From positions 33,520,313-33,530,312 of the forward strand of contig NC_086380.1 in NCBI RefSeq assembly GCF_036588685.1: DNA of 10,000 nucleotides. Direction: 5' to 3'. Every line of letters starts with the position of its first letter. Within the stretch, counting starts at the first letter, position 1. Position numbers and translations under genes: made by a program. The notes under the pieces were generated by a model. That model ran no database searches, was not told the DNA's origin, and saw only the letters and a program-made list of their open reading frames with translations. Below, one piece after another: positions 1-10,000 of this stretch. Source of the DNA: Mytilus trossulus (lineage: Eukaryota).

Positions 1-2302
1 TGAGGGTACTTTCTCTAAAAATGAGGGTACTTTTTATATGGCCTTCCAAATACCGTTTCGATCCCTAACATCACTGAAGAGACATTTATTGTCGAAATCA
101 GGATATGGTGTACTAAAGAAATATTGACACCGAATGTTTGTGGCACAACATACTGTCCACAAGTTAACAATTTTTTTTTCTGTGACGTATTAAATTTATA
201 TTAGGATCCATTTTGTTACATCTTGTGATCAATTTTATTTGGCAATCGTCAATGGCAGTCAGCAGGGTTAAAGAACATCAGTTGTTCGACCTGTTAGTCA
301 AATGCGTTTTGTTTAAATATACTTTTTCACTCTTTTGGTCTTTTGGAAAATGTTGTTTGTGCTGTTTTTAGACCCTTTTACAACGAAATTTGTTTTACAT
401 GCACACGTATAAAAACTGCGGTTTTTATCCAACGCAGTCATAGGTTTGAACGTAGTTTTCAATTTAGACTCGTTTATATTTTTTGTTTGGGCATGTATCA
501 TATTTTCCCTCTGGTTTATATGATCCGTTCATCCTATATATTGACTCTTAAAATTCAAGAGTTAATCTAAAAATGAGGGTACTTTCTCTAAAAATGAGGG
601 TACTTTTTATATGGCCTTCCAAATACCGTTTCGATCCCTAACATCACTGAAGAGACATTTATTGTCGAAATCAGGATATGGTGTACTAAAGAAATATTGA
701 CACCGAATGTTTGTGGCACAACATACTGTCCACAAGTTAACAATTTTTTTTTCTGTGACGTATTAAATTTATATTAGGATCCATTTTGTTACATCTTGTG
801 ATCAATTTTATTTGGCAATCGTCAATGGCAGTCAGCAGGGTTAAAGAACATCAGTTGTTCGACCTGTTAGTCAAATGCGTTTTGTTTAAATATACTTTTT
901 CACTCTTTTGGTCTTTTGGAAAATGTTGTTTGTGCTGTTTTTAGACCCTTTTACAACGAAATTTGTTTTACATGCACACGTATAAAAACTGCGGTTTTTA
1001 TCCAACGCAGTCATAGGTTTGAACGTAGTTTTCAATTTAGACTCGTTTATATTTTTTGTTTGGGCATGTATCATATTTTCCCTCCGGTTTATATGATCCG
1101 TTCATCCTATTGACTCTTAAAATTCAAGAGTTAATCTAAAAATGAGGGTACTTTCTCTAAAAATGAGGGTACTTTTTATATGGCCTTCCAAATACCGTTT
1201 CGATCCCTAACATCACTGAAGAGTCATTTATTGTCGAAATCAGGATATGGTGTACTAAAAAAATATTGACACCGAATGTTTGTGGCACAACATACTGTCC
1301 ACAAGTTAACAATTTTTTTTTCTGTGACGTATTAAATTTATATTAGGATCCATTTTGTTACATCTTGTGATCAATTTTATTTGGCAATCGTCAATGGCAG
1401 TCAGCAGGGTTAAAGAACATCAGTTGTTCGACCTGTTAGTCAAATGCGTTTTGTTTAAATATACTTTTTCACTCTTTTGGTCTTTTGGAAAATGTTGTTT
1501 GTGCTGTTTTTAGACCCTTTTACAACGAAATTTGTTTTACATGCACACGTATAAAAACTGCGGTTTTTATCCAACGCAGTCATAGGTTTGAACGTAGTTT
1601 TCAATTTAGACTCGTTTATATTTTTTGTTTGGGCATGTATCATATTTTCCCTCTGGTTTATATGATCCGTTCATCCTATATATTGACTCTTAAAATTCAA
1701 GAGTTAATCTAAAAATGAGGGTACTTTCTCTAAAAATGAGGGTACTTTTTATATGGCCTTCCAAATACCGTTTCGATCCCTAACATCACTGAAGAGACAT
1801 TTATTGTCGAAATCAGGATATGGTGTACTAAAGAAATATTGACACCGAATGTTTGTGGCACAACATACTGTCCACAAGTTAACAATTTTTTTTTCTGTGA
1901 CGTATTAAATTTATATTAGGATCCATTTTGTTACATCTTGTGATCAATTTTATTTGGCAATCGTCAATGGCAGTCAGCAGGGTTAAAGAACATCAGTTGT
2001 TCGACCTGTTAGTCAAATGCGTTTTGTTTAAATATACTTTTTCACTCTTTTGGTCTTTTGGAAAATGTTGTTTGTGCTGTTTTTAGACCCTTTTACAACG
2101 AAATTTGTTTTACATGCACACGTATAAAAACTGCGGTTTTTATCCAACGCAGTCATAGGTTTGAAAGTAGTTTTCAATTTAGACTCGTTTATATTTTTTG
2201 TTTGGGCATGTATCATATTTTCCCTCCGGTTTATATGATCCGTTCATCCTATTGACTCTTAAAATTCAAGAGTTAATCTAAAAATGAGGGTACTTTCTCT
2301 AA
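1..2302. repeat. Tandem satellite array 1: four monomers (573, 569, 573, 569 bp, an A/B dimeric higher-order pattern) plus the first 23 bp of a fifth monomer
   Basis: Direct sequence identity. The unit boundary motif 'aaaaatgagggtactttctct' recurs at 569, 1138, 1711 and 2280. The ORF-track copies at 313/886/1455/2028 give periods 573, 569, 573. B-type units differ from A-type by CTCTGG->CTCCGG and a 4-bp ATAT deletion (cctatatattgac -> cctattgac). Confidence 0.95.
569..610. repeat. 21-bp internal tandem duplication at the monomer boundary (aaaaatgagggtactttctct + aaaaatgagggtactttttat), repeated in every monomer
   Basis: Seen directly. Two adjacent 21-mers are 18/21 identical. The same pair occurs at 1138-1179, 1711-1752 and 4159-4200. 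Confidence 0.85.
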
Positions 2303-2325
2303 TCAAAGTGATGGATATCACTCAT

Positions 2326-2351
2326 GGAAAGATTAGAACAGTAGTTTAAAT
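2326..2351. repeat. Left TIR-like end of the insertion: GGAAAGATTAGAACAGTAGTTTAAAT
   Basis: Reverse complement of 3582-3606 is GGAAAGATAAGAACTTGTTCTAAAT. About 19/25 positions match, including the identical leading GGAAAGAT and AGAAC. The left copy lies 23 bp inside the junction (2303-2325 = tcaaagtgatggatatcactcat, itself a small hairpin agtgat/atcact). Confidence 0.45.
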
Positions 2352-2420
2352 TATTTCATATTAAGGTATGTTGGGGGAAAATGAACATTTATAGAGCACT
2401 ATTGCTGAAAATTGCATTTA

Positions 2421-2626
2421 CAGAGGGGGGAAAGGACCTTTATCAGGACTCCGGGAGCGAGTGTTTTTTAAGCTCGGGATTTTGGGATTAACCCTTTCGG
2501 AATCCGGGAATCCTTTTTTTCTGATTTCGGGACGTCGGGATTTACTTTATTTAAATTCGGGACCTCAGGATTTCTTTTTTTTAAGTCCGGGATTTCGGGA
2601 CCAGGACCCCTACTATCCCCCCTCTT
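2421..2626. repeat. GC-richer ~200-bp module: ~30-bp minisatellite (about 5 copies, consensus roughly tTCGGGAynTCGGGATTT + T-run + aag) bracketed by a perfect 9-bp inverted repeat AGAGGGGGG / CCCCCCTCT
   Basis: Seen directly. TCGGGA(T/C) or TCCGGGA pairs at ~2449, 2473, 2497, 2526, 2556 and 2585, each followed by a T-run. Inverted repeat arms at 2423-2430... more precisely 2422-2430 and 2617-2625. MITE-like, but no target-site duplication identified. Confidence 0.6.
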
Positions 2627-3581
2627 AACAGCAGGTTTTTAGAAGGAAATAATGCTTTTCCATTGAGAGGATAAAATGAGCTCAAATTAAATAATATGAA
2701 TCTCTAAATTTTCACAATTTTATTTAAACTGCAGTTTATATCTAATCTAAATTAATATGTTGCCAGTTCAGAACATGTTTTAAAAAATCAAAAAAATGCA
2801 AAATCCGTCTAGTAAATGTTATAAACTATCCTTGTAAGACAAAAAAATAGACCAACAGCTAAAAGCTTTAAAGTGGCAACAAATATAATCTAAAAATGTT
2901 GTTTTGGGGCATTTTGTAAGTTGAAACAGAGGTTATATGGCATTGAAAATACTTGAATACCTTTTATATATTCATATTTATATTCATATTTCATTTTTTT
3001 TAAATCTTGTTACTCCATTAATCATTTAAATATAATCTTTCAGATATAATTTACAGAATCACTGTATGTAATGTAGATCAAAAGTAATTGGCAATAAATA
3101 AATCTATAATCCTTATGAATATCAAACATCTAATATACACATTTGTGTATTCAATTATGAGGTCAAATACTTGTGTATTAAGAATTATATCATATTTTGT
3201 GTGGTCTGTATAATTATGTAAGACTGAGGTTGATAGGTAATGTGGTCAATTTGATTGGCAGTTTAGGAGGTGGGGCATTGTAATTAAAGGTCCACCTTGT
3301 CTCTGATTGATTAGTGATAATGACAGTGGTCAATCATACTAGTGGAATCAATACCCATTTACCTAATCAAAATGTTTTTAAAAAAGCCTGCACATCAACA
3401 CACCTTAATTACATACAATCTTGAATGAACTGCTCCAATAATATACCCAGTTTTTTTTCAGTTTATTTGTGTAGTATGTGCATATTCATGAGAACAATAG
3501 GGAACTATATTTTAGTGTGAATACATTTAGTAACAGTAGCTAACCTGTCCTGTTGTTAGGGAGGGTGGTGCCTAAGTAAAG

Positions 3582-3606
3582 ATTTAGAACAAGTTCTTAT
3601 CTTTCC
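3582..3606. repeat. Right TIR-like end of the insertion (inverted partner of 2326-2351), abutting the resumption of the satellite at 3607
   Basis: See the partner feature. It ends exactly where the satellite sequence aaaaatgagggttctttttatatgg resumes. Confidence 0.45.
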
Positions 3607-5205
3607 AAAAATGAGGGTTCTTTTTATATGGCCTTCCAAATACCGTTTCGATCCCTAACATCACTGAAGAGTCATTTATTGTCGAAATCAGGATATGGTG
3701 TACTAAAAAAATATTGACACCGAATGTTTGTGGCACAACATACTGTCCACAAGTTAACAATTTTTTTTTCTGTGACGTATTAAATTTATATTAGGATCCA
3801 TTTTGTTACATCTTGTGATCAATTTTATTTGGCAATCGTCAATGGCAGTCAGCAGGGTTAAAGAACATCAGTTGTTCGACCTGTTAGTCAAATGCGTTTT
3901 GTTTAAATATACTTTTTCACTCTTTTGGTCTTTTGGAAAATGTTGTTTGTGCTGTTTTTAGACCCTTTTACAACGAAATTTGTTTTACATGCACACGTAT
4001 AAAAACTGCGGTTTTTATCCAACGCAGTCATAGGTTTGAACGTAGTTTTCAATTTAGACTCGTTTATATTTTTTGTTTGGGCATGTATCATATTTTCCCT
4101 CCGGTTTATATGGTCCGTTCATCCTATATATTGACTCTTAAAATTCAAGAGTTAATCTAAAAATGAGGGTACTTTCTCTAAAAATGAGGGTACTTTTTAT
4201 ATGGCCTTCCAAATACCGTTTCGATCCCTAACATCACTGAAGAGACATTTATTGTCGAAATCAGGATATGGTGTACTAAAGAAATATTGACACCGAATGT
4301 TTGTGGCACAACATACTGTCCACAAGTTAACAATTTTTTTTTCTGTGACGTATTAAATTTATATTAGGATCCATTTTGTTACATCTTGTGATCAATTTTA
4401 TTTGGCAATCGTCAATGGCAGTCAGCAGGGTTAAAGAACATCAGTTGTTCGACCTGTTAGTCAAATGCGTTTTGTTTAAATATACTTTTTCACTCTTTTG
4501 GTCTTTTGGAAAATGTTGTTTGTGCTGTTTTTAGACCCTTTTACAACGAAATTTGTTTTACATGCACACGTATAAAAACTGCGGTTTTTATCCAACGCAG
4601 TCATAGGTTTGAACGTAGTTTTCAATTTAGACTCGTTTATATTTTTTGTTTGGGCATGTATCATATTTTCCCTCCGGTTTATATGATCCGTTCATCCTAT
4701 ATATTGACTCTTAAAATTCAAGAGTTTAAAAATGAGGGTACTTTCTCTAAAAATGAGGGTACTTTTTATATGGCCTTCCAAATACCGTTTCGATCCCTAA
4801 CATCACTGAAGAGTCATTTATTGTCGAAATCAGGATATGGTGTACTAAAGAAATATTGACACCGAATGTTTGTGGCACAACATACTGTCCACAAGTTAAC
4901 AATTTTTTTTTCTGTGACGTATTAAATTTATATTAGGATCCATTTTGTTACATCTTGTGATCAATTTTATTTGGCAATCGTCAATGGCAGTCAGCAGGGT
5001 TAAAGAACATCAGTTGTTCGACCTGTTAGTCAAATGCGTTTTGTTTAAATATACTTTTTCACTCTTTTGGTCTTTTGGAAAATGTTGTTTGTGCTGTTTT
5101 TAGACCCTTTTACAACGAAATTTGTTTTACATGCACACGTATAAAAACTGCGGTTTTTATCCAACGCAGTCATAGGTTTGAACGTAGTTTTCAATTTAGA
5201 CTCGT
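3607..5205. repeat. Tandem satellite array 2: same monomer family. Two near-complete units (552 and 569 bp) plus a 478-bp truncated third unit
   Basis: Unit starts at 4159 and 4728. The first unit begins at the second 21-bp sub-repeat (monomer position 22). The unit 2/3 junction lacks 4 bp (gagttaatctaaaaatg -> gagtttaaaaatg). The array ends inside ...tttagactcgt at 5205. Confidence 0.95.
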
Positions 5206-5342: not shown

Positions 5343-5436
5343 AGTTCATATATAAGAAAAAGTTACGTAAAGTCGGTATGCTGGTAACATATAAGAAAAT
5401 TATTAAAAGATAATATTGAAACCATCGGATCGCATC

Positions 5437-5451
5437 AATATATATATATAT
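5437..5451. repeat. (AT)n microsatellite followed by (GT)3, immediately outside the left inverted-repeat copy
   Basis: atatatatatatat then gtgtgt. The right inverted-repeat copy is flanked by a related ggtgtatat string at 9312-9325 on the opposite strand. Confidence 0.75.
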
Positions 5452-5455
5452 GTGT

Positions 5456-5521
5456 GTTACAGTAAATAGGTGAAATTCGGAATTACATGTAATTAATAAA
5501 ATTTCGGAATTACCTGTAATT
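5456..5521 (-). repeat. Left copy of an ~66-68-bp inverted repeat pair (partner 9244-9311). Contains the perfect 14-bp palindrome AATTACATGTAATT and a dense set of GTAATT/AATTAC motifs
   Basis: The reverse complement of 9244-9311 aligns at about 56/68 (~82%). The first 40 bp are 36/40 identical (gttacagtaaata[g/c]gtgaaatt[c/a]ggaat...gtaatta) and the last 11 bp are 11/11 (tacctgtaatt). Confidence 0.75.
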
Positions 5522-6954
5522 CCCGATACACTTAGCAAATACAAGTAATTCCTGAATCTGTCTAGTTATAACCAGTAATTACTAGTTTTTAAATGATTTT
5601 TTTAAAGGTGATAAAACAATGTTATAATATGGCAAGCTGATGAAAAATAAGGATAAAACAGTGAACATTATCAAAAAGTGATCAACCTAAAATGTACCTT
5701 TTTGTTATATTAAAGGGTATTAGGCACTGTTAGCTATATAATGCAAAAAAATACATTATATGTTTTGTTGTTGTTCAATCAAATTATAATTCGATTTTTT
5801 TAAGATAAGTTTGGGTCATTTTTTTTTTCTCAAAATAAGCTAAGAAACATGGCTGATGAGTTATTCACTTGCAAATGAATAATTCAACCTCAATGTAACC
5901 GTTAAGCTGGAGCTGGGTTACACATGTATTCAGCTATTAAAAAGGATAGAATGACAAAATTGAAAGTAAAACAAAAGGGATGCACCATTTGGTTTACTGG
6001 GTCGATCCACAATAAGCTCATTCACATACATGTAAAGGTAAATACGACATTCGTTTGATGTGTTTGAGCTTTTGATGGTGCTATTTGATTAGGACTTATA
6101 GTTATAAATTGACTATGAGGGTCGGTTGAAATACAGATTTACGACAAGAGATGATTTCAGCATCCCAATTGTGACTTTTCCTTTTTTGTTTTTCAAATGG
6201 TGAAGTTGAAATCATCACTTCTTAAATTTTACGGACGCCATCACGAGTTGGCTGACCGTTATGGAATATCCGTTTCACATATGACACTGGATATGTTGCT
6301 TATGTCGTAGCTATAATCCATTTCTCTTTTCACGAAAGTGGGACAACCGAATTAGACTATGTACCGGCCCTGTAATAACACGAGTATTACGACGAGTGCC
6401 ATATGTGGAGCAGGATCTGTTTTCCCTTACGGAGCACCTTAGATCCCCCCCAGATTTTGGTTGGATTCGTGTTGCTTTTTCTTTACTTTTTCATGTTGTG
6501 TCTTGCAAGTCTTAACCTTTTTTCAGCCATGGTGTTGTCAGTTTATTTACGATCTATGAGTTTAGACTTGGAACAGGCACCTGCGTTATGTGCTGTGGTA
6601 AACCAGTTTTGCCGAATACACACACGCCATTTTTCCCACTCAATAATTTATATGTGTGATTAATGATGTAAAACCAATACAGCACTGAACATATTGTAAA
6701 ATTCCACCCTAAAGCACCAAACCTACCTAGAAATAATGATGTTCATGTGTGTCTGTCTGTTTGCAAGTCAGGACTAGTTTCTTCATAAGGATTGGTGGTT
6801 TCGATTTGTTATGCGACACTATCAATATGTCAATAGCCGCAGAACATCGAGTAAACATGTACATGTATTTTAATTCTTAATGGGTAATCATTTTTGCTAC
6901 AAAAAAGGTGTTGATAACTGCTATATGACATGTGCAGTACAATTTTTGTACAGG

Positions 6955-6978
6955 TATATGTGAGCCAAAATTTGTTCC
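6955..6978 (+). repeat. Left terminal inverted repeat of the 1.23-kb element
   Basis: See the element feature. Confidence 0.7.
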
Positions 6979-7030
6979 TGTGAAAAAAGTTCCAGTGGAA
7001 CTAATATGTTCTGGGAGAACTTTTTTCACA
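6979..7030. repeat. Hairpin with perfect 14-bp arms (tgtgaaaaaagttc ... gaacttttttcaca) and a 24-nt loop containing its own small palindrome gttccagtggaac, immediately inside the left TIR
   Basis: Seen directly. Arms at 6979-6992 and 7017-7030 are exact reverse complements. Confidence 0.85.
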
Positions 7031-7080
7031 GACAATTTCTATATAATTTGTTCCATCTATATGAAATAAGTTCCACACTT

Positions 7081-7244
7081 TACCTGGTGAAATAAGTTAT
7101 GGGTTGGTGAAATTTGTTCCTTACCTAGTGAAATAAGTTCCATGTTTGTGAGATTTGTTCCTTACCTGGTGAAATAAGTTCTGGATTTGTGAGATTTGTT
7201 CCTCATCTGGTGAAATAAGTACCTTGTCTATGAAATTTGTTCCG
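7081..7244 (+). repeat. Subterminal tandem repeat: 4 copies at an exact 41-bp period (tacctggtgaaataagttNNNNgtttgtga[a/g]atttgttcct)
   Basis: Units at 7081, 7122, 7163 and 7204. Each holds one GTGAAATAAGTTCC-type half and one GTGAnATTTGTTCC-type half. Degenerate copies continue outward to ~7046. Inverted copies of the same motifs fill 7999-8182. Confidence 0.85.
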
Positions 7245-7760
7245 CTGGTTAAACAAGTTATGTTACATACTGAGCACTTGTCATCAGTGAGTTTAAAGTC
7301 ATTATAAAAAACATGTTTTATAATTGATAAGGTAATAAATAAAAAGTGTAAACATCAAATTTGGATCATGTGGAGTAAAGCAAAAGTTAATAACATTATT
7401 CTCAATAAATAATACTAAAAATGACACTTATGAACCAGGAAAGAGTAGAATAAATAATAATAAAAGTCATTCCGAAAAAAAGAATTATAATAGTTAAAGA
7501 TGAATATTTGTACTTTTTCAAAATGGACAAAGTGACTGATCAATTATATTTCAAGACATAGAAAAACAAAAGACACTCTCTTTAAAAACTGTGAAATGAC
7601 AATAGCTAAGTACATGTATGATTAGAACACCCATAACAGATCAACAGGAAATTAAAGGAGGTGGAATACCACTTCAATGATAAAATAGATACAAATTATG
7701 AAACATTATGATTCTCATCGCTTTTATTTCTTATCTTCATCCTAAAGTCATGCCTTTAAT

Positions 7761-7828
7761 CAATCTCCCATGCAGAGTTCTCGGTCCTTGAGAGAGAGCA
7801 AGGACCGAGAACTTTGCATGGGAGATTG
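7761..7828. repeat. 68-bp near-perfect palindrome (30-bp arms, 29/30 complementary, 8-bp AG spacer agagagag), flanked by the 9-bp direct repeat GCCTTTAAT at 7752-7760 and 7829-7837
   Basis: Left arm caatctcccatgcagagttctcggtccttg. Right arm caaggaccgagaactttgcatgggagattg. One mismatch (C/T). The identical 9-mers abut both arm ends. Confidence 0.9.
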
Positions 7829-7998
7829 GCCTTTAATTGCAAATGTACCCCATGCAAGCACAGTACTTATTTCCTGTGAAACAGGTTTCATCAGAACATT
7901 TTCATTGATTTCTATAAAATACCTTCTTTCAAAACTAATATCACACAAACTTAATTCACTTTTTTTAAATTTTAATATTGGAACAAAACTCATACATT

Positions 7999-8182
7999 GT
8001 CATAGTGCTGTGATTTTTGTTCCGGAACTTATTTCACACTTGGTTAGAAAATTAGTTCTGGAACAAATTTTATAGTGCTGGAACATATTTTCTGTGACAT
8101 AAGTTCCGCTGGAACATATTTCCTATGAAATTTGTTCCAGAGGAACAAATGTCACGCCGGAACAAATTTTTTGTTACATATA
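7999..8182 (-). repeat. Right subterminal arm: inverted copies of the GTGAAATAAGTTCC / GTGAAATTTGTTCC motifs with repeated GTTCC-N(0-3)-GGAAC palindromes (gttccggaac, gttctggaac, gttccgctggaac, gttccagaggaac)
   Basis: Seen directly. ggaacttatttcac is the reverse complement of gtgaaataagttcc. The same palindromic motif class occurs in the left arm (gttccagtggaac 6990-7002, gttctgggagaac 7009-7021). Confidence 0.8.
8159..8182 (-). repeat. Right terminal inverted repeat of the 1.23-kb element
   Basis: See the element feature. Confidence 0.7.
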
Positions 8183-8881
8183 CAGGCTTAAGTTTGGAGG
8201 TCTTTAGAAAGTCATATAAAAGAGACACTTAAAGCCATCATTTTGTATAATTTTATTTATGAAGAATGTCACCTTCAAGTTGCTTATTCTTTAGTTTTCT
8301 ATGTCATGTGTCATTGGTTCTATTGTTTGTCTATTTGTCTTCTTTCATATTTAGCCAGGCGTTGTAAGTTTATGTTCAATTTATAAATTTGACTGTCCCT
8401 CTGGTATCTTTCGTCCCTATTTCAATGCAAATTCTAACAACAGAAGTCTTAGTTTAAAATAATTTGTCTGATGAATTAAATTATTTCATATGTCAAGTTA
8501 GTCTGATTGATATGCAAAGTATGCTTATTAATAGAGATTTTAATGTTTCCTGATGAATAATCATTATCTTTCAACCATATATGGCATAATAGAATGTCTA
8601 TCATCAAAAAGAACGAACGAGAATTCTCACAAATGTATTTCTCATATATTGATTATATGATTGTCTTGCATGTTGAAAACGATTTTTAGCGAGTTTCAAA
8701 AATTATAAAGCAACCATTTCCCTATTTCAATTCACAAACAAATTTATAAAACATACAGTCTTTGATTCCTTTACATATACGTAATCTCTACAATCCCTAC
8801 CCCGTTACTTTATTATTTGGTATATTGATGTATGTCTCAATTTTAATACAAATTAAAATATCAAGTTTGTGAATAGCTGTA

Positions 8882-8907
8882 AAAAAAATAATTAGTAATT
8901 ACAGGTA
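8882..8907 (+). repeat. Partial third copy of the inverted-repeat end motif: A8-run + AGTAATTACAGGTA (identical 14-mer to 9242-9255, also preceded by an A8 run)
   Basis: Seen directly. aaaaaaaataattagtaattacaggta versus aaaaaaaagtaattacaggta. Confidence 0.6.
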
Positions 8908-9243
8908 CAAAAAATTAATATGTTTGAAATTTTCAAAAAAGAATTTCTTCAATATCATGAAATATTGATAAATAAAGAAGGCAAATATGAAAAATTCCAT
9001 AATCTGGTTGCAGCAAAAATTAAATTAATTTCATAAATTTATTATACATCGTGCTATCATATTTCTATTCAGTTACATACATGTCATTATTACTATATAT
9101 ACATATTGTGCTCTAACAAGTTCTAACTTATCAATAAAATGCTATATACTAACGTTAACGAGGCCGGGATAAGGTACCGGTACTTCATGTATCTCTAACA
9201 AATGTAAAATTCAAATAAAATATTATAACACTTAAAAAAAAGT

Positions 9244-9311
9244 AATTACAGGTATTTACTGAATTGTGTAGTAATTACGTGTCATTCCTAATTTCACGTA
9301 TTTACTGTAAC
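9244..9311 (+). repeat. Right copy of the inverted repeat pair. The two copies bracket ~3.86 kb (5456-9311)
   Basis: See the partner feature. Either TIRs of a ~3.9-kb composite element, or two inverted copies of a short dispersed repeat. Confidence 0.75.
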
Positions 9312-9691
9312 ATATACACCTGTGAATCTGCAGTCACAACTCTAAGGAACTAATTACCTAAAAATCTGACACCTATAATTTCATTGTGTAATTTAAAAGA
9401 ATCAAGCTGTATTAAAGAAATGTGGTACACAAATGTTTCTTGTAAACCATTTAAAAGGAGTAGGTCCGGTAAGGACCGATTTTGGCCTCAAATTTTAGTT
9501 TCATCTGATGAAAGATTTTGACCACTTTTTAAACACTTAAGTTTCTATTTCAATGGTTTCGATTAATTTATGTGAAAGATTTAAACTTATTTCGTCATTA
9601 AAAACGATCCGATTCAAGCTCAAATACGGAAAATCTACTAAATATGCGGAAAAATGTCACTTTTCACATGGTTTTTGTCCAAAACGAAATT

Positions 9692-9788
9692 GGCCCCATC
9701 CGTGTTCATCCTCAACCTTTATATATGTTATGTATCATCATCAAATACAACTTCCATTTCAATATTTTGGATGAACACGAATGTGGCC
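9692..9788. repeat. Inverted repeat with 20-bp arms (ggccccatccgtgttcatcc / ggatgaacacgaatgtggcc, 18/20) separated by a 57-bp AT-rich loop
   Basis: Seen directly. Arms at 9692-9711 and 9769-9788. Confidence 0.7.
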
Positions 9789-10000
9789 ACTTTCTTTATA
9801 CACGGAAACCGTCTAAAATTTAAGTAAAATGCTGAAATTGTTACGATTTCAGTAATTTAGCATGACTTTATGGTGCTAGTACCCAATATATGTGCATTGT
9901 ATTTTCAAAAACAGTCCATATTTATGTAGCAGAACCATTTTACTATCCAATAAATAACTAAAAGTTTACATTTTAACAATTTTGTAAAACTGCCATATTT

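Follow-up and report, generated by a model that had tools for sequence, protein, structure and literature searches.

The 10,000-nucleotide (nt) stretch of NCBI RefSeq contig NC_086380.1 analysed here (assembly GCF_036588685.1, forward strand, positions 33,520,313 to 33,530,312; hereafter the window, with positions counted from its first letter) carries at 6959-8178 a 1,220-base-pair (bp) element bounded by inverted repeats. We read this element, with a probability of about 0.7, as a non-autonomous DNA transposon of the Ginger2/TDD type, inserted at a GTATAC target inside an outer 3.86-kb element of the same type. The inner element is a bounded, non-coding transposon with terminal inverted repeats (TIRs) and reiterated subterminal motifs. 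Its target-site duplication (TSD) is most likely TATA and its true termini TGT...ACA, the tetramer CAGG on either side being, we infer, a chance flank; the whole is most likely an ordinary transposon fossil that encodes no protein.

Boundary letters of the inner and outer elements

The inner element is closed by an inverted pair in which 6955-6978 (TATATGTGAGCCAAAATTTGTTCC) agrees with the reverse complement of 8159-8182 (TATATGTAACAAAAAATTTGTTCC) at 20 of 24 positions, or at 21 of 25 once G6954 and C8183 are counted. An earlier, sequence-only reading of the window had proposed this 24-bp pair with 19 matches in 24; the pair stands and the count is corrected. The same reading had reported that CAGG abuts both ends, which is borne out at 6951-6954 and 8183-8186, where the tetramer adjoins the inverted repeat on both sides; if the final TA of the inverted repeat is taken into it, this direct repeat stretches to 6 bp, TACAGG (6949-6954 and 8181-8186). 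Searching the window with the TIR pattern gave two exact matches and two with three mismatches, all within the inner element, against 0.04 in shuffled sequence. The left junction reads ...TTTTTGTACAGG TATA TGTGAGCC... and the right junction ...TTGTTACA TATA CAGGCTTAAG...; together they are composed of four short features (slashes, here and below, mark proposed cuts):

6951-6954, no strand: left CAGG, the TSD proposed by the sequence-only reading; TACAGG if begun at 6949
6955-6958, no strand: left copy of the proposed 4-bp TSD TATA, preceded by G6954; the same TATA/TGT boundary occurs in an integrase-bearing element described below (L030)
8179-8182, no strand: second copy of the proposed TSD, TATA, on the right, with C8183 directly after it
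8183-8186, no strand: right CAGG, the second copy of the TSD proposed earlier; as TACAGG (8181-8186) it overlaps TATA

These letters can be read in three ways: (a) as ends TATATGT...ACATATA flanked by CAGG, (a') as ends TA...TA flanked by TACAGG, or (b) as ends TGT...ACA flanked by TATA. The last of these is the register of Ginger2/TDD elements, which are described as having TGTNR termini, TIRs of 45-297 bp (Table 2 of the source), 4-bp TSDs and a preferred target RTATAY (Bao, Kapitonov & Jurka 2010, PMC2836005); Dictyostelium TDD elements have a 5-bp TSD. In this register the inner boundary is G/TATA/TGTGA...TTACA/TATA/C, with TGTGA beginning at 6959 and, in reverse complement, TGTAA at 8178, both of which fit TGTNR. 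TATA is present at both ends within a target, GTATAC, that fits RTATAY, although it is palindromic, is seen in a single copy and has the competing CAGG repeat alongside. Because TATA, and here the whole of GTATAC, is palindromic, the duplication is easily taken for the outer tip of the TIR, which accounts for the apparent TATATGT...ACATATA ends. The 4-bp length of the TSD in the sequence-only reading is retained on this account; its letters are not, since CAGG most likely stands there by chance and TATA had been counted into the TIR.

A second inverted pair, 44 nt long with 89% identity, encloses the inner element, and its ends were placed as follows:

5447-5498, plus strand: outer left end; TSD TATA at 5447-5450 closing a (TA)7 run, with A before it; terminus TGTGTGTTACAGTAAATAGGTGAAATTCGGAATTAC; AATTAC/GTAATT subterminal motifs
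9269-9316, minus strand: outer right end; the element closes with ...CTGTAACA at 9312; TSD TATA fills 9313-9316, with C9317 beyond it

On the left, the (TA)7 run is followed by A/TATA/TGTGTGTTACAGTAAATAGG..., and on the right the sequence is ...CTGTAACA/TATA/CACC..., so that the boundary is A/TATA/TGT...ACA/TATA/C at a target, ATATAC, which again has the RTATAY context; the termini TGTGT (left) and TGTTA (right) both conform to TGTNR. TATATGT is common to the inner and the outer pair because it is the target TATA followed by the terminus TGT. The published comparison is with insect Ginger2 MITEs (miniature inverted-repeat transposable elements), the Ginger2_NA elements of Bombyx and Rhodnius, for which the TSD TATA is characteristic and the TIR is TGTTACGGTAAAAGTA (PMC3845634). 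Repbase classifies a non-autonomous element with a known family when TSD length is equal and terminal positions 1-11 differ by at most one mismatch. The outer right terminus in reverse complement, TGTTACAGTAA, that is TGTTACAGTAAATACGTGAAATT, agrees with the Ginger2_NA TIR TGTTACGGTAA at 10 of 11 positions, within this rule, whereas the inner element agrees with TGTTACGGTAA at 7 of 11 positions at its right end and at fewer otherwise. For this reason the assignment of the inner element relies on signature and association and not on terminal homology. The outer element (5451-9312, 3.86 kb) is probably non-autonomous and of the same Ginger2/TDD type.

The two families are related, since they share both the boundary and the heptamer GTGAAAT. 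This heptamer occurs nine times in the window, six times in the inner arms, once in the inner core (7591) and once in each outer TIR, and nowhere else; all eight copies in arms and TIRs face inward. The suggestion in the sequence-only reading that the outer inverted pair belongs to a related family is thus upheld by the shared TATA/TGT boundary and GTGAAAT. Further subterminal motifs of the outer element are GGAATTAC(N)(N)GTAATT and TTACAGGTA, and TACAGGTA also recurs there as a subterminal motif.

The outer element bears on the choice of register. The sequence-only reading would place the inner element at 6955-8182, with TATATGT...ACATATA ends and a CAGG TSD, in another or an undescribed superfamily with non-specific 4-bp TSDs. 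CAGG does adjoin exactly where the inverted repeat stops, a match with a chance of about 1/256 at a fixed position, and the TIR is perfectly symmetric in that register. Yet the outer element has the same TATATGT boundary, and outside it the letters, TATA and CACC, show no duplication in a CAGG-type register, which weighs for the Ginger2 register. An arbitrary terminus would moreover have to equal TATA plus TGTNR with R before and Y after, and such termini occur in none of the 4-bp-TSD families that we checked in the literature. We regard a CAGG insertion as unlikely.

Reading (a') would make the element a non-autonomous member of the IS3EU/GingerRoot type at 6955-8180, with TA...TA termini and TACAGG as a 6-bp TSD (6949-6954 and 8181-8186). 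This type is likewise integrase-related; TA..TA termini, TIRs of 100-150 bp and 6-bp, often GC-rich TSDs are known from it, homologues have been reported in an oyster, and the direct repeat is present at 6 of 6 positions, so that TA..TA with TACAGG is readable here. Such a placement, however, requires unequal TIR ends with a 2-bp offset between them (TATATGT against TATGT), without which only 10 of 22 positions match; it reduces the TATATGT boundary and the GTGAAAT shared with the Ginger2-like outer element to coincidence, and it leaves the outer element, which has no 6-bp TSD at TA termini, and the RTATAY context unexplained. We consider it very improbable.

These registers were compared by a rough likelihood estimate of our own from the base composition of the window, in which the Ginger2 reading was charged fully for the TACAGG repeat and the others for an arbitrary terminus equal to TATA+TGTNR with R and Y flanks. 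On this estimate the junction letters would be about 12 times likelier under Ginger2 than under reading (a), and about 40 times likelier than under (a'). The outer element and the heptamer common to both elements tip the balance further that way. Should CAGG or TACAGG be real together with TATATGT...ACATATA ends, the element would stand for an as yet undescribed line of TIR transposons, integrase-related or entirely different, with a Ginger2-like end and the target cut outside it; this is distinctly unlikely, but such a lineage would link Ginger2 (TG..CA, 4 bp) to IS3EU/GingerRoot (TA..TA, 6 bp). The expected empty site differs accordingly, being ...TTTTTGTACAGGTATACAGGCTTAAG... if the Ginger2 reading is true and ...TTTTTGTACAGGCTTAAG... 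if CAGG or TACAGG is the duplication.

Arms, core and a nested hairpin

Between its ends the inner element consists of two motif-rich arms and an AT-rich core:

6959-7260, plus strand: left arm; terminus TGTGA, a collinear part of about 100 bp, then about 10 motif copies, 9 of 10 on the plus strand
7080-7243, plus strand: tandem array within the left arm; 41-bp unit in 4 copies, each with two motif variants, GGTGAAATAAGTTCY and TGTGAGATTTGTTCC
7261-7974, no strand: core; AT-rich, non-coding, with neither a Pfam match nor an integrase remnant
7752-7837, no strand: hairpin insertion in the core; 68-bp hairpin at 7761-7828 between copies of the 9-bp direct repeat GCCTTTAAT at 7752-7760 and 7829-7837
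7975-8178, minus strand: right arm; reverse-complement terminus TGTAA, motif in the opposite orientation in 7 of 10 copies, several palindromic pairs

The left arm (about 6970-7055) runs collinear with the right (8059-8151) for about 100 bp; the alignment scores 58 against 18.7 +/- 2.6 for shuffled sequences, with one extra 17-bp unit on the right side. The arrays of both arms are built from a motif of approximately the form GTGA(A/G)AT(A/T)(A/T)GTTCC, several copies of which form palindromic pairs GTTCC-N0-3-GGAAC. The window holds 23 copies of the pentamer GTTCC/GGAAC, and 20 of these lie within the 514 bp of the arms (binomial p = 2.5e-23), with 9 copies on the plus strand and 1 on the minus strand in the left arm and 3 and 7, respectively, in the right. 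The long subterminal arms of about 300 and 190 bp described by the sequence-only reading are thereby confirmed, as arrays of one short motif in opposite orientation that reach about 300 bp on the left and about 200 bp on the right, within the Ginger2 TIR range of about 45-300 bp; concentration of the pentamer in the arms likewise accords with its description of short reiterated motifs, such as are commonly interpreted as transposase-binding sites. Its tandem repeat was found in part. TRF reports a 41-bp unit in 4.0 copies at 7080-7243, with 80-86% matches, whereas in the right arm the same motif yields periodicities of 20 and 31 bp and the 41-bp unit as such, or its reverse complement, is not there. 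The 41-bp array is a local expansion that lengthens the left arm relative to the right.

The core, 714 bp with a GC content of 0.29, is AT-rich and non-coding as had been claimed (about 740 bp in that account); it contains no Pfam match, no tRNA, no Rfam match above the gathering score, and only short spurious open reading frames (ORFs). An integrase remnant was sought across the window and none was found. Both the inner and the outer element are classed as non-autonomous because neither an ORF with a Pfam match nor an integrase remnant is present. Within the core, the 68-bp hairpin has 30-nt arms that are 97% complementary (DNA dG -34.8 kcal/mol, z = -11.6) and, with its perfect 9-bp direct repeat, looks like a tiny palindromic element that inserted later, a third level of nesting. 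Rfam matches of the hairpins to miRNA-like families were sub-threshold only and were judged to be generic hairpin matches.

A further explanation is that there was no independent insertion at all, the feature being a local inverted duplication or foldback that formed where it lies, or else a module internal to the outer family. It is consistent with the single copy, with the GTGAAAT core common to inner arms and outer TIRs, and with searches of protein, metagenome, prokaryotic-genome and viral collections, among which the host genome is not included, that returned nothing related. In those searches, 416 amino acids of concatenated stop-free translations of the inner element had no protein matches; the TIR pattern gave 16 matches in JGI metagenomes, all by chance and none with a motif-rich arm; the arm-unit pattern had zero matches in GTDB genomes and IMG/VR; and scans with the empty-site and outer-TIR patterns also gave zero, in collections without the host genome. 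An origin in place is nevertheless hard to reconcile with an inverted repeat that stops sharply at a transposon-type boundary with a flanking duplication under every reading, with arms that are motif arrays of differing periodicities and not two copies of one segment, and with the same architecture in intact integrase-bearing transposons. We regard it as extremely unlikely, and return to the Ginger2/TDD assignment with those transposons.

Comparison with integrase-bearing and other transposons

The integrase domain of Ginger2-1_LS (Littorina), taken from the alignment file of the paper, was used as a query and returned 525 homologues, and the DNA around seven of them was examined. Two intact elements were recovered, both from ENA assemblies. 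The first (L030:8898-11305, 2.4 kb) contains an rve ORF that shares 63% identity with the query and has the ends A/TATA/TGTTGTGCC...GGCACAACA/TATA/C, also written A/TATA/TGTTGTGCCCC...GGGGCACAACA/TATA/C, at target ATATAC; its TIR of 105 nt (97%) is an assembly of 17-20-bp motifs that face either way and in part form palindromic pairs. The second (L021:8909-12703, 3.8 kb) has an rve ORF with 68% identity to the query, termini TGTTAC...GTAACA, the 4-bp TSD GTTT and, over about 127 nt, a TIR in which a 19-21-bp motif is reiterated. Elements that encode a Ginger2-type integrase thus have the same motif-array arm architecture as the inner element, and the TATA boundary is seen in L030. The inner element resembles Ginger2/TDD elements in its TGTNR...CA termini, in a proposed 4-bp TSD, TATA within RTATAY, in a TIR length within 45-297 bp, in being a non-coding derivative of a size that ranges roughly from MITE to 1 kb, and in TIRs of short motifs reiterated in both orientations, as in L021 and L030.

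Around another integrase locus, in an unrelated AT-rich genome (L019:7576-9932), a Ginger2-type integrase ORF has a 2.4-kb foldback directly upstream of it; the arms of this foldback, about 600 bp each, consist of tandem units of about 20 bp that contain GTGAAAT, and its boundary, C/TATA/CC...GG/TATA/G, is another case of ambiguity from a palindromic target. The eight integrase loci of P0125 are large segmental copies in a genome with a GC content of 0.43.

Several points weigh against the Ginger2/TDD assignment or set the inner element apart from known members. In a single copy, and only one is available, a palindromic TATA TSD is inseparable from TIR sequence. The flanking repeat is not predicted by the model and is left unexplained, with a chance under Ginger2 of about 1/256 for 4 bp to 1/4096 for TACAGG, a coincidence softened only a little by the recurrence of TACAGGTA in the outer element. 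TGTTAC-group Ginger2 elements share only TGT(W)A with the inner termini TGTGAGCC and TGTAACAA, and the outer left terminus TGTGTGTTAC has three extra bases compared with TGTTAC, beside the (TA)7 run, its junction lying inside a (TA)7(TG)3 run. No autonomous partner with the inner termini was found among the seven integrase families looked up, all of them from other genomes, and no clean TIR or TSD was found around the other integrase loci (L019, L020, L022-L029, L031-L033), which comprise five of the seven families. TSD GTTT in one of the two intact examples, moreover, makes TATA a preference and not a rule. The inner arms also differ from those of known Ginger2 elements, being unusually long and asymmetric through the fourfold 41-bp expansion.

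The superfamilies shortlisted by the sequence-only reading (CACTA, Mutator, hAT, P and foldback-type elements) do not fit by TSD or termini; what fits is Ginger2/TDD. TSDs are 8 bp in hAT, 7-8 in P, 9-10 in Mutator, 2-3 in CACTA and 9 in foldback elements, and the termini are family-specific (for example CACTA or YARNG). No direct repeat of 7-10 bp is present at the boundary (TGTACAGG against CAGGCTTA), which dismisses hAT, P, Mutator and foldback elements, while CACTA fails on its 3-bp flanks (AGG against CAG) and on termini that are of neither the CACTA nor the CAG type. Tc1/mariner fails on its TA TSD, the right flank being CT. Sola (Sola1/2) uses AWWT targets, Kolobok TTAA with RR..YY termini, piggyBac TTAA with CC..GG termini and Ginger1 CCGG/CCGT targets; for Sola, Kolobok/KolobokP, piggyBac and Ginger1, neither TATA+TGT nor CAGG+TATATGT fits. 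Animal AcademX elements have 3-bp TSDs, and Academ and the Helitron/Helentron-type satellite carriers were dismissed on TSD or termini.

"Foldback-like" is consequently apt for the shape of the inner element and not for its classification. Foldback-type elements (Drosophila FB, Tetris) and the bivalve MITE/Helentron derivatives that carry tandem repeats (pearl, DTC84) share arms of reiterated units and a non-coding centre with it, a resemblance in shape only. FB elements have 9-bp TSDs, and in the bivalve satellite carriers, to our knowledge, the repeats are central and not mirrored subterminally, with no true TIR or TSD.

The Ginger2/TDD assignment suggests a mechanism for how the element arose. 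An autonomous Ginger2 element elsewhere in the genome would supply in trans an integrase-like DDE transposase, with an H2C2 zinc finger and an rve core, that would bind the GTGAAAT(W)(W)GTTCC motifs reiterated through the two arms. Cleavage would occur at the conserved ...CA-3' ends (5'-TGT...ACA-3'), the ends would be joined to a target whose strands are cut 4 bp apart, with a preference for R/TATA/Y, and repair of the gaps would produce the TATA duplication. The left arm would have grown later through tandem duplication of the 41-bp pair of putative binding sites, and the 68-bp hairpin element with its 9-bp TSD would have landed in the core later still.

Surroundings and significance

The window is AT-rich (GC content about 0.25-0.42) and eukaryotic-looking; throughout it, no tRNA and no Rfam match above the gathering score was found, and its ORFs are short only; two ORFs of the window were looked up by exact sequence, and neither has an entry. 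Positions 1-5137 are a tandem satellite of alternating 573- and 569-bp monomers in 7 copies that are 99-100% identical. It is interrupted at about 2303-3610 by an insertion of about 1.3 kb that holds a 30-bp tandem repeat in 2.5 copies (2526-2600); the intact monomers give its empty site, and the junction resembles a diverged duplication of about 13 bp. A short way to the left of the outer element, a further terminus-like site, TATA/TGTTACC on the minus strand (GGTAACA/TATA/A on the plus strand), lies at 5381-5393 and may be the solo end of another Ginger2-type element; the 10-mer TATATGTTAC occurs twice in the window against about 0.09 expected. Degenerate interspersed repeat fragments occupy 6150-6560 and 8260-8420, with frames that read ...YGRHHELADRYGISVS..., ...GAGSVFPYGAP... 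and ...FDCPSGIFRP...; they resemble a very abundant bivalve repeat, and their pseudo-peptides had only 19 weak matches, to short ENA metagenome contigs. An imperfect inverted repeat at 9662-9818, with 63-nt arms that are 71% complementary and a 31-nt spacer, may be another decayed MITE.

Hairpin, inner element and outer element form a nest of three levels, and its boundaries hold a technical lesson. A palindromic target, here TATA within RTATAY, hides the TSD inside the apparent TIR, and a chance flanking repeat can then be mistaken for the TSD, which would misclassify the element. As intact copies that encode an integrase, L021 and L030 can serve as references for the Ginger2 superfamily. Ginger-type elements have been reported as rare in molluscs, at 98 of 14,275 DDE ORFs, and the inner element, if the Ginger2/TDD assignment is right, would add to this sparse catalogue a long-armed, tandem-expanded, non-autonomous Ginger2-type family in a probable mollusc genome.

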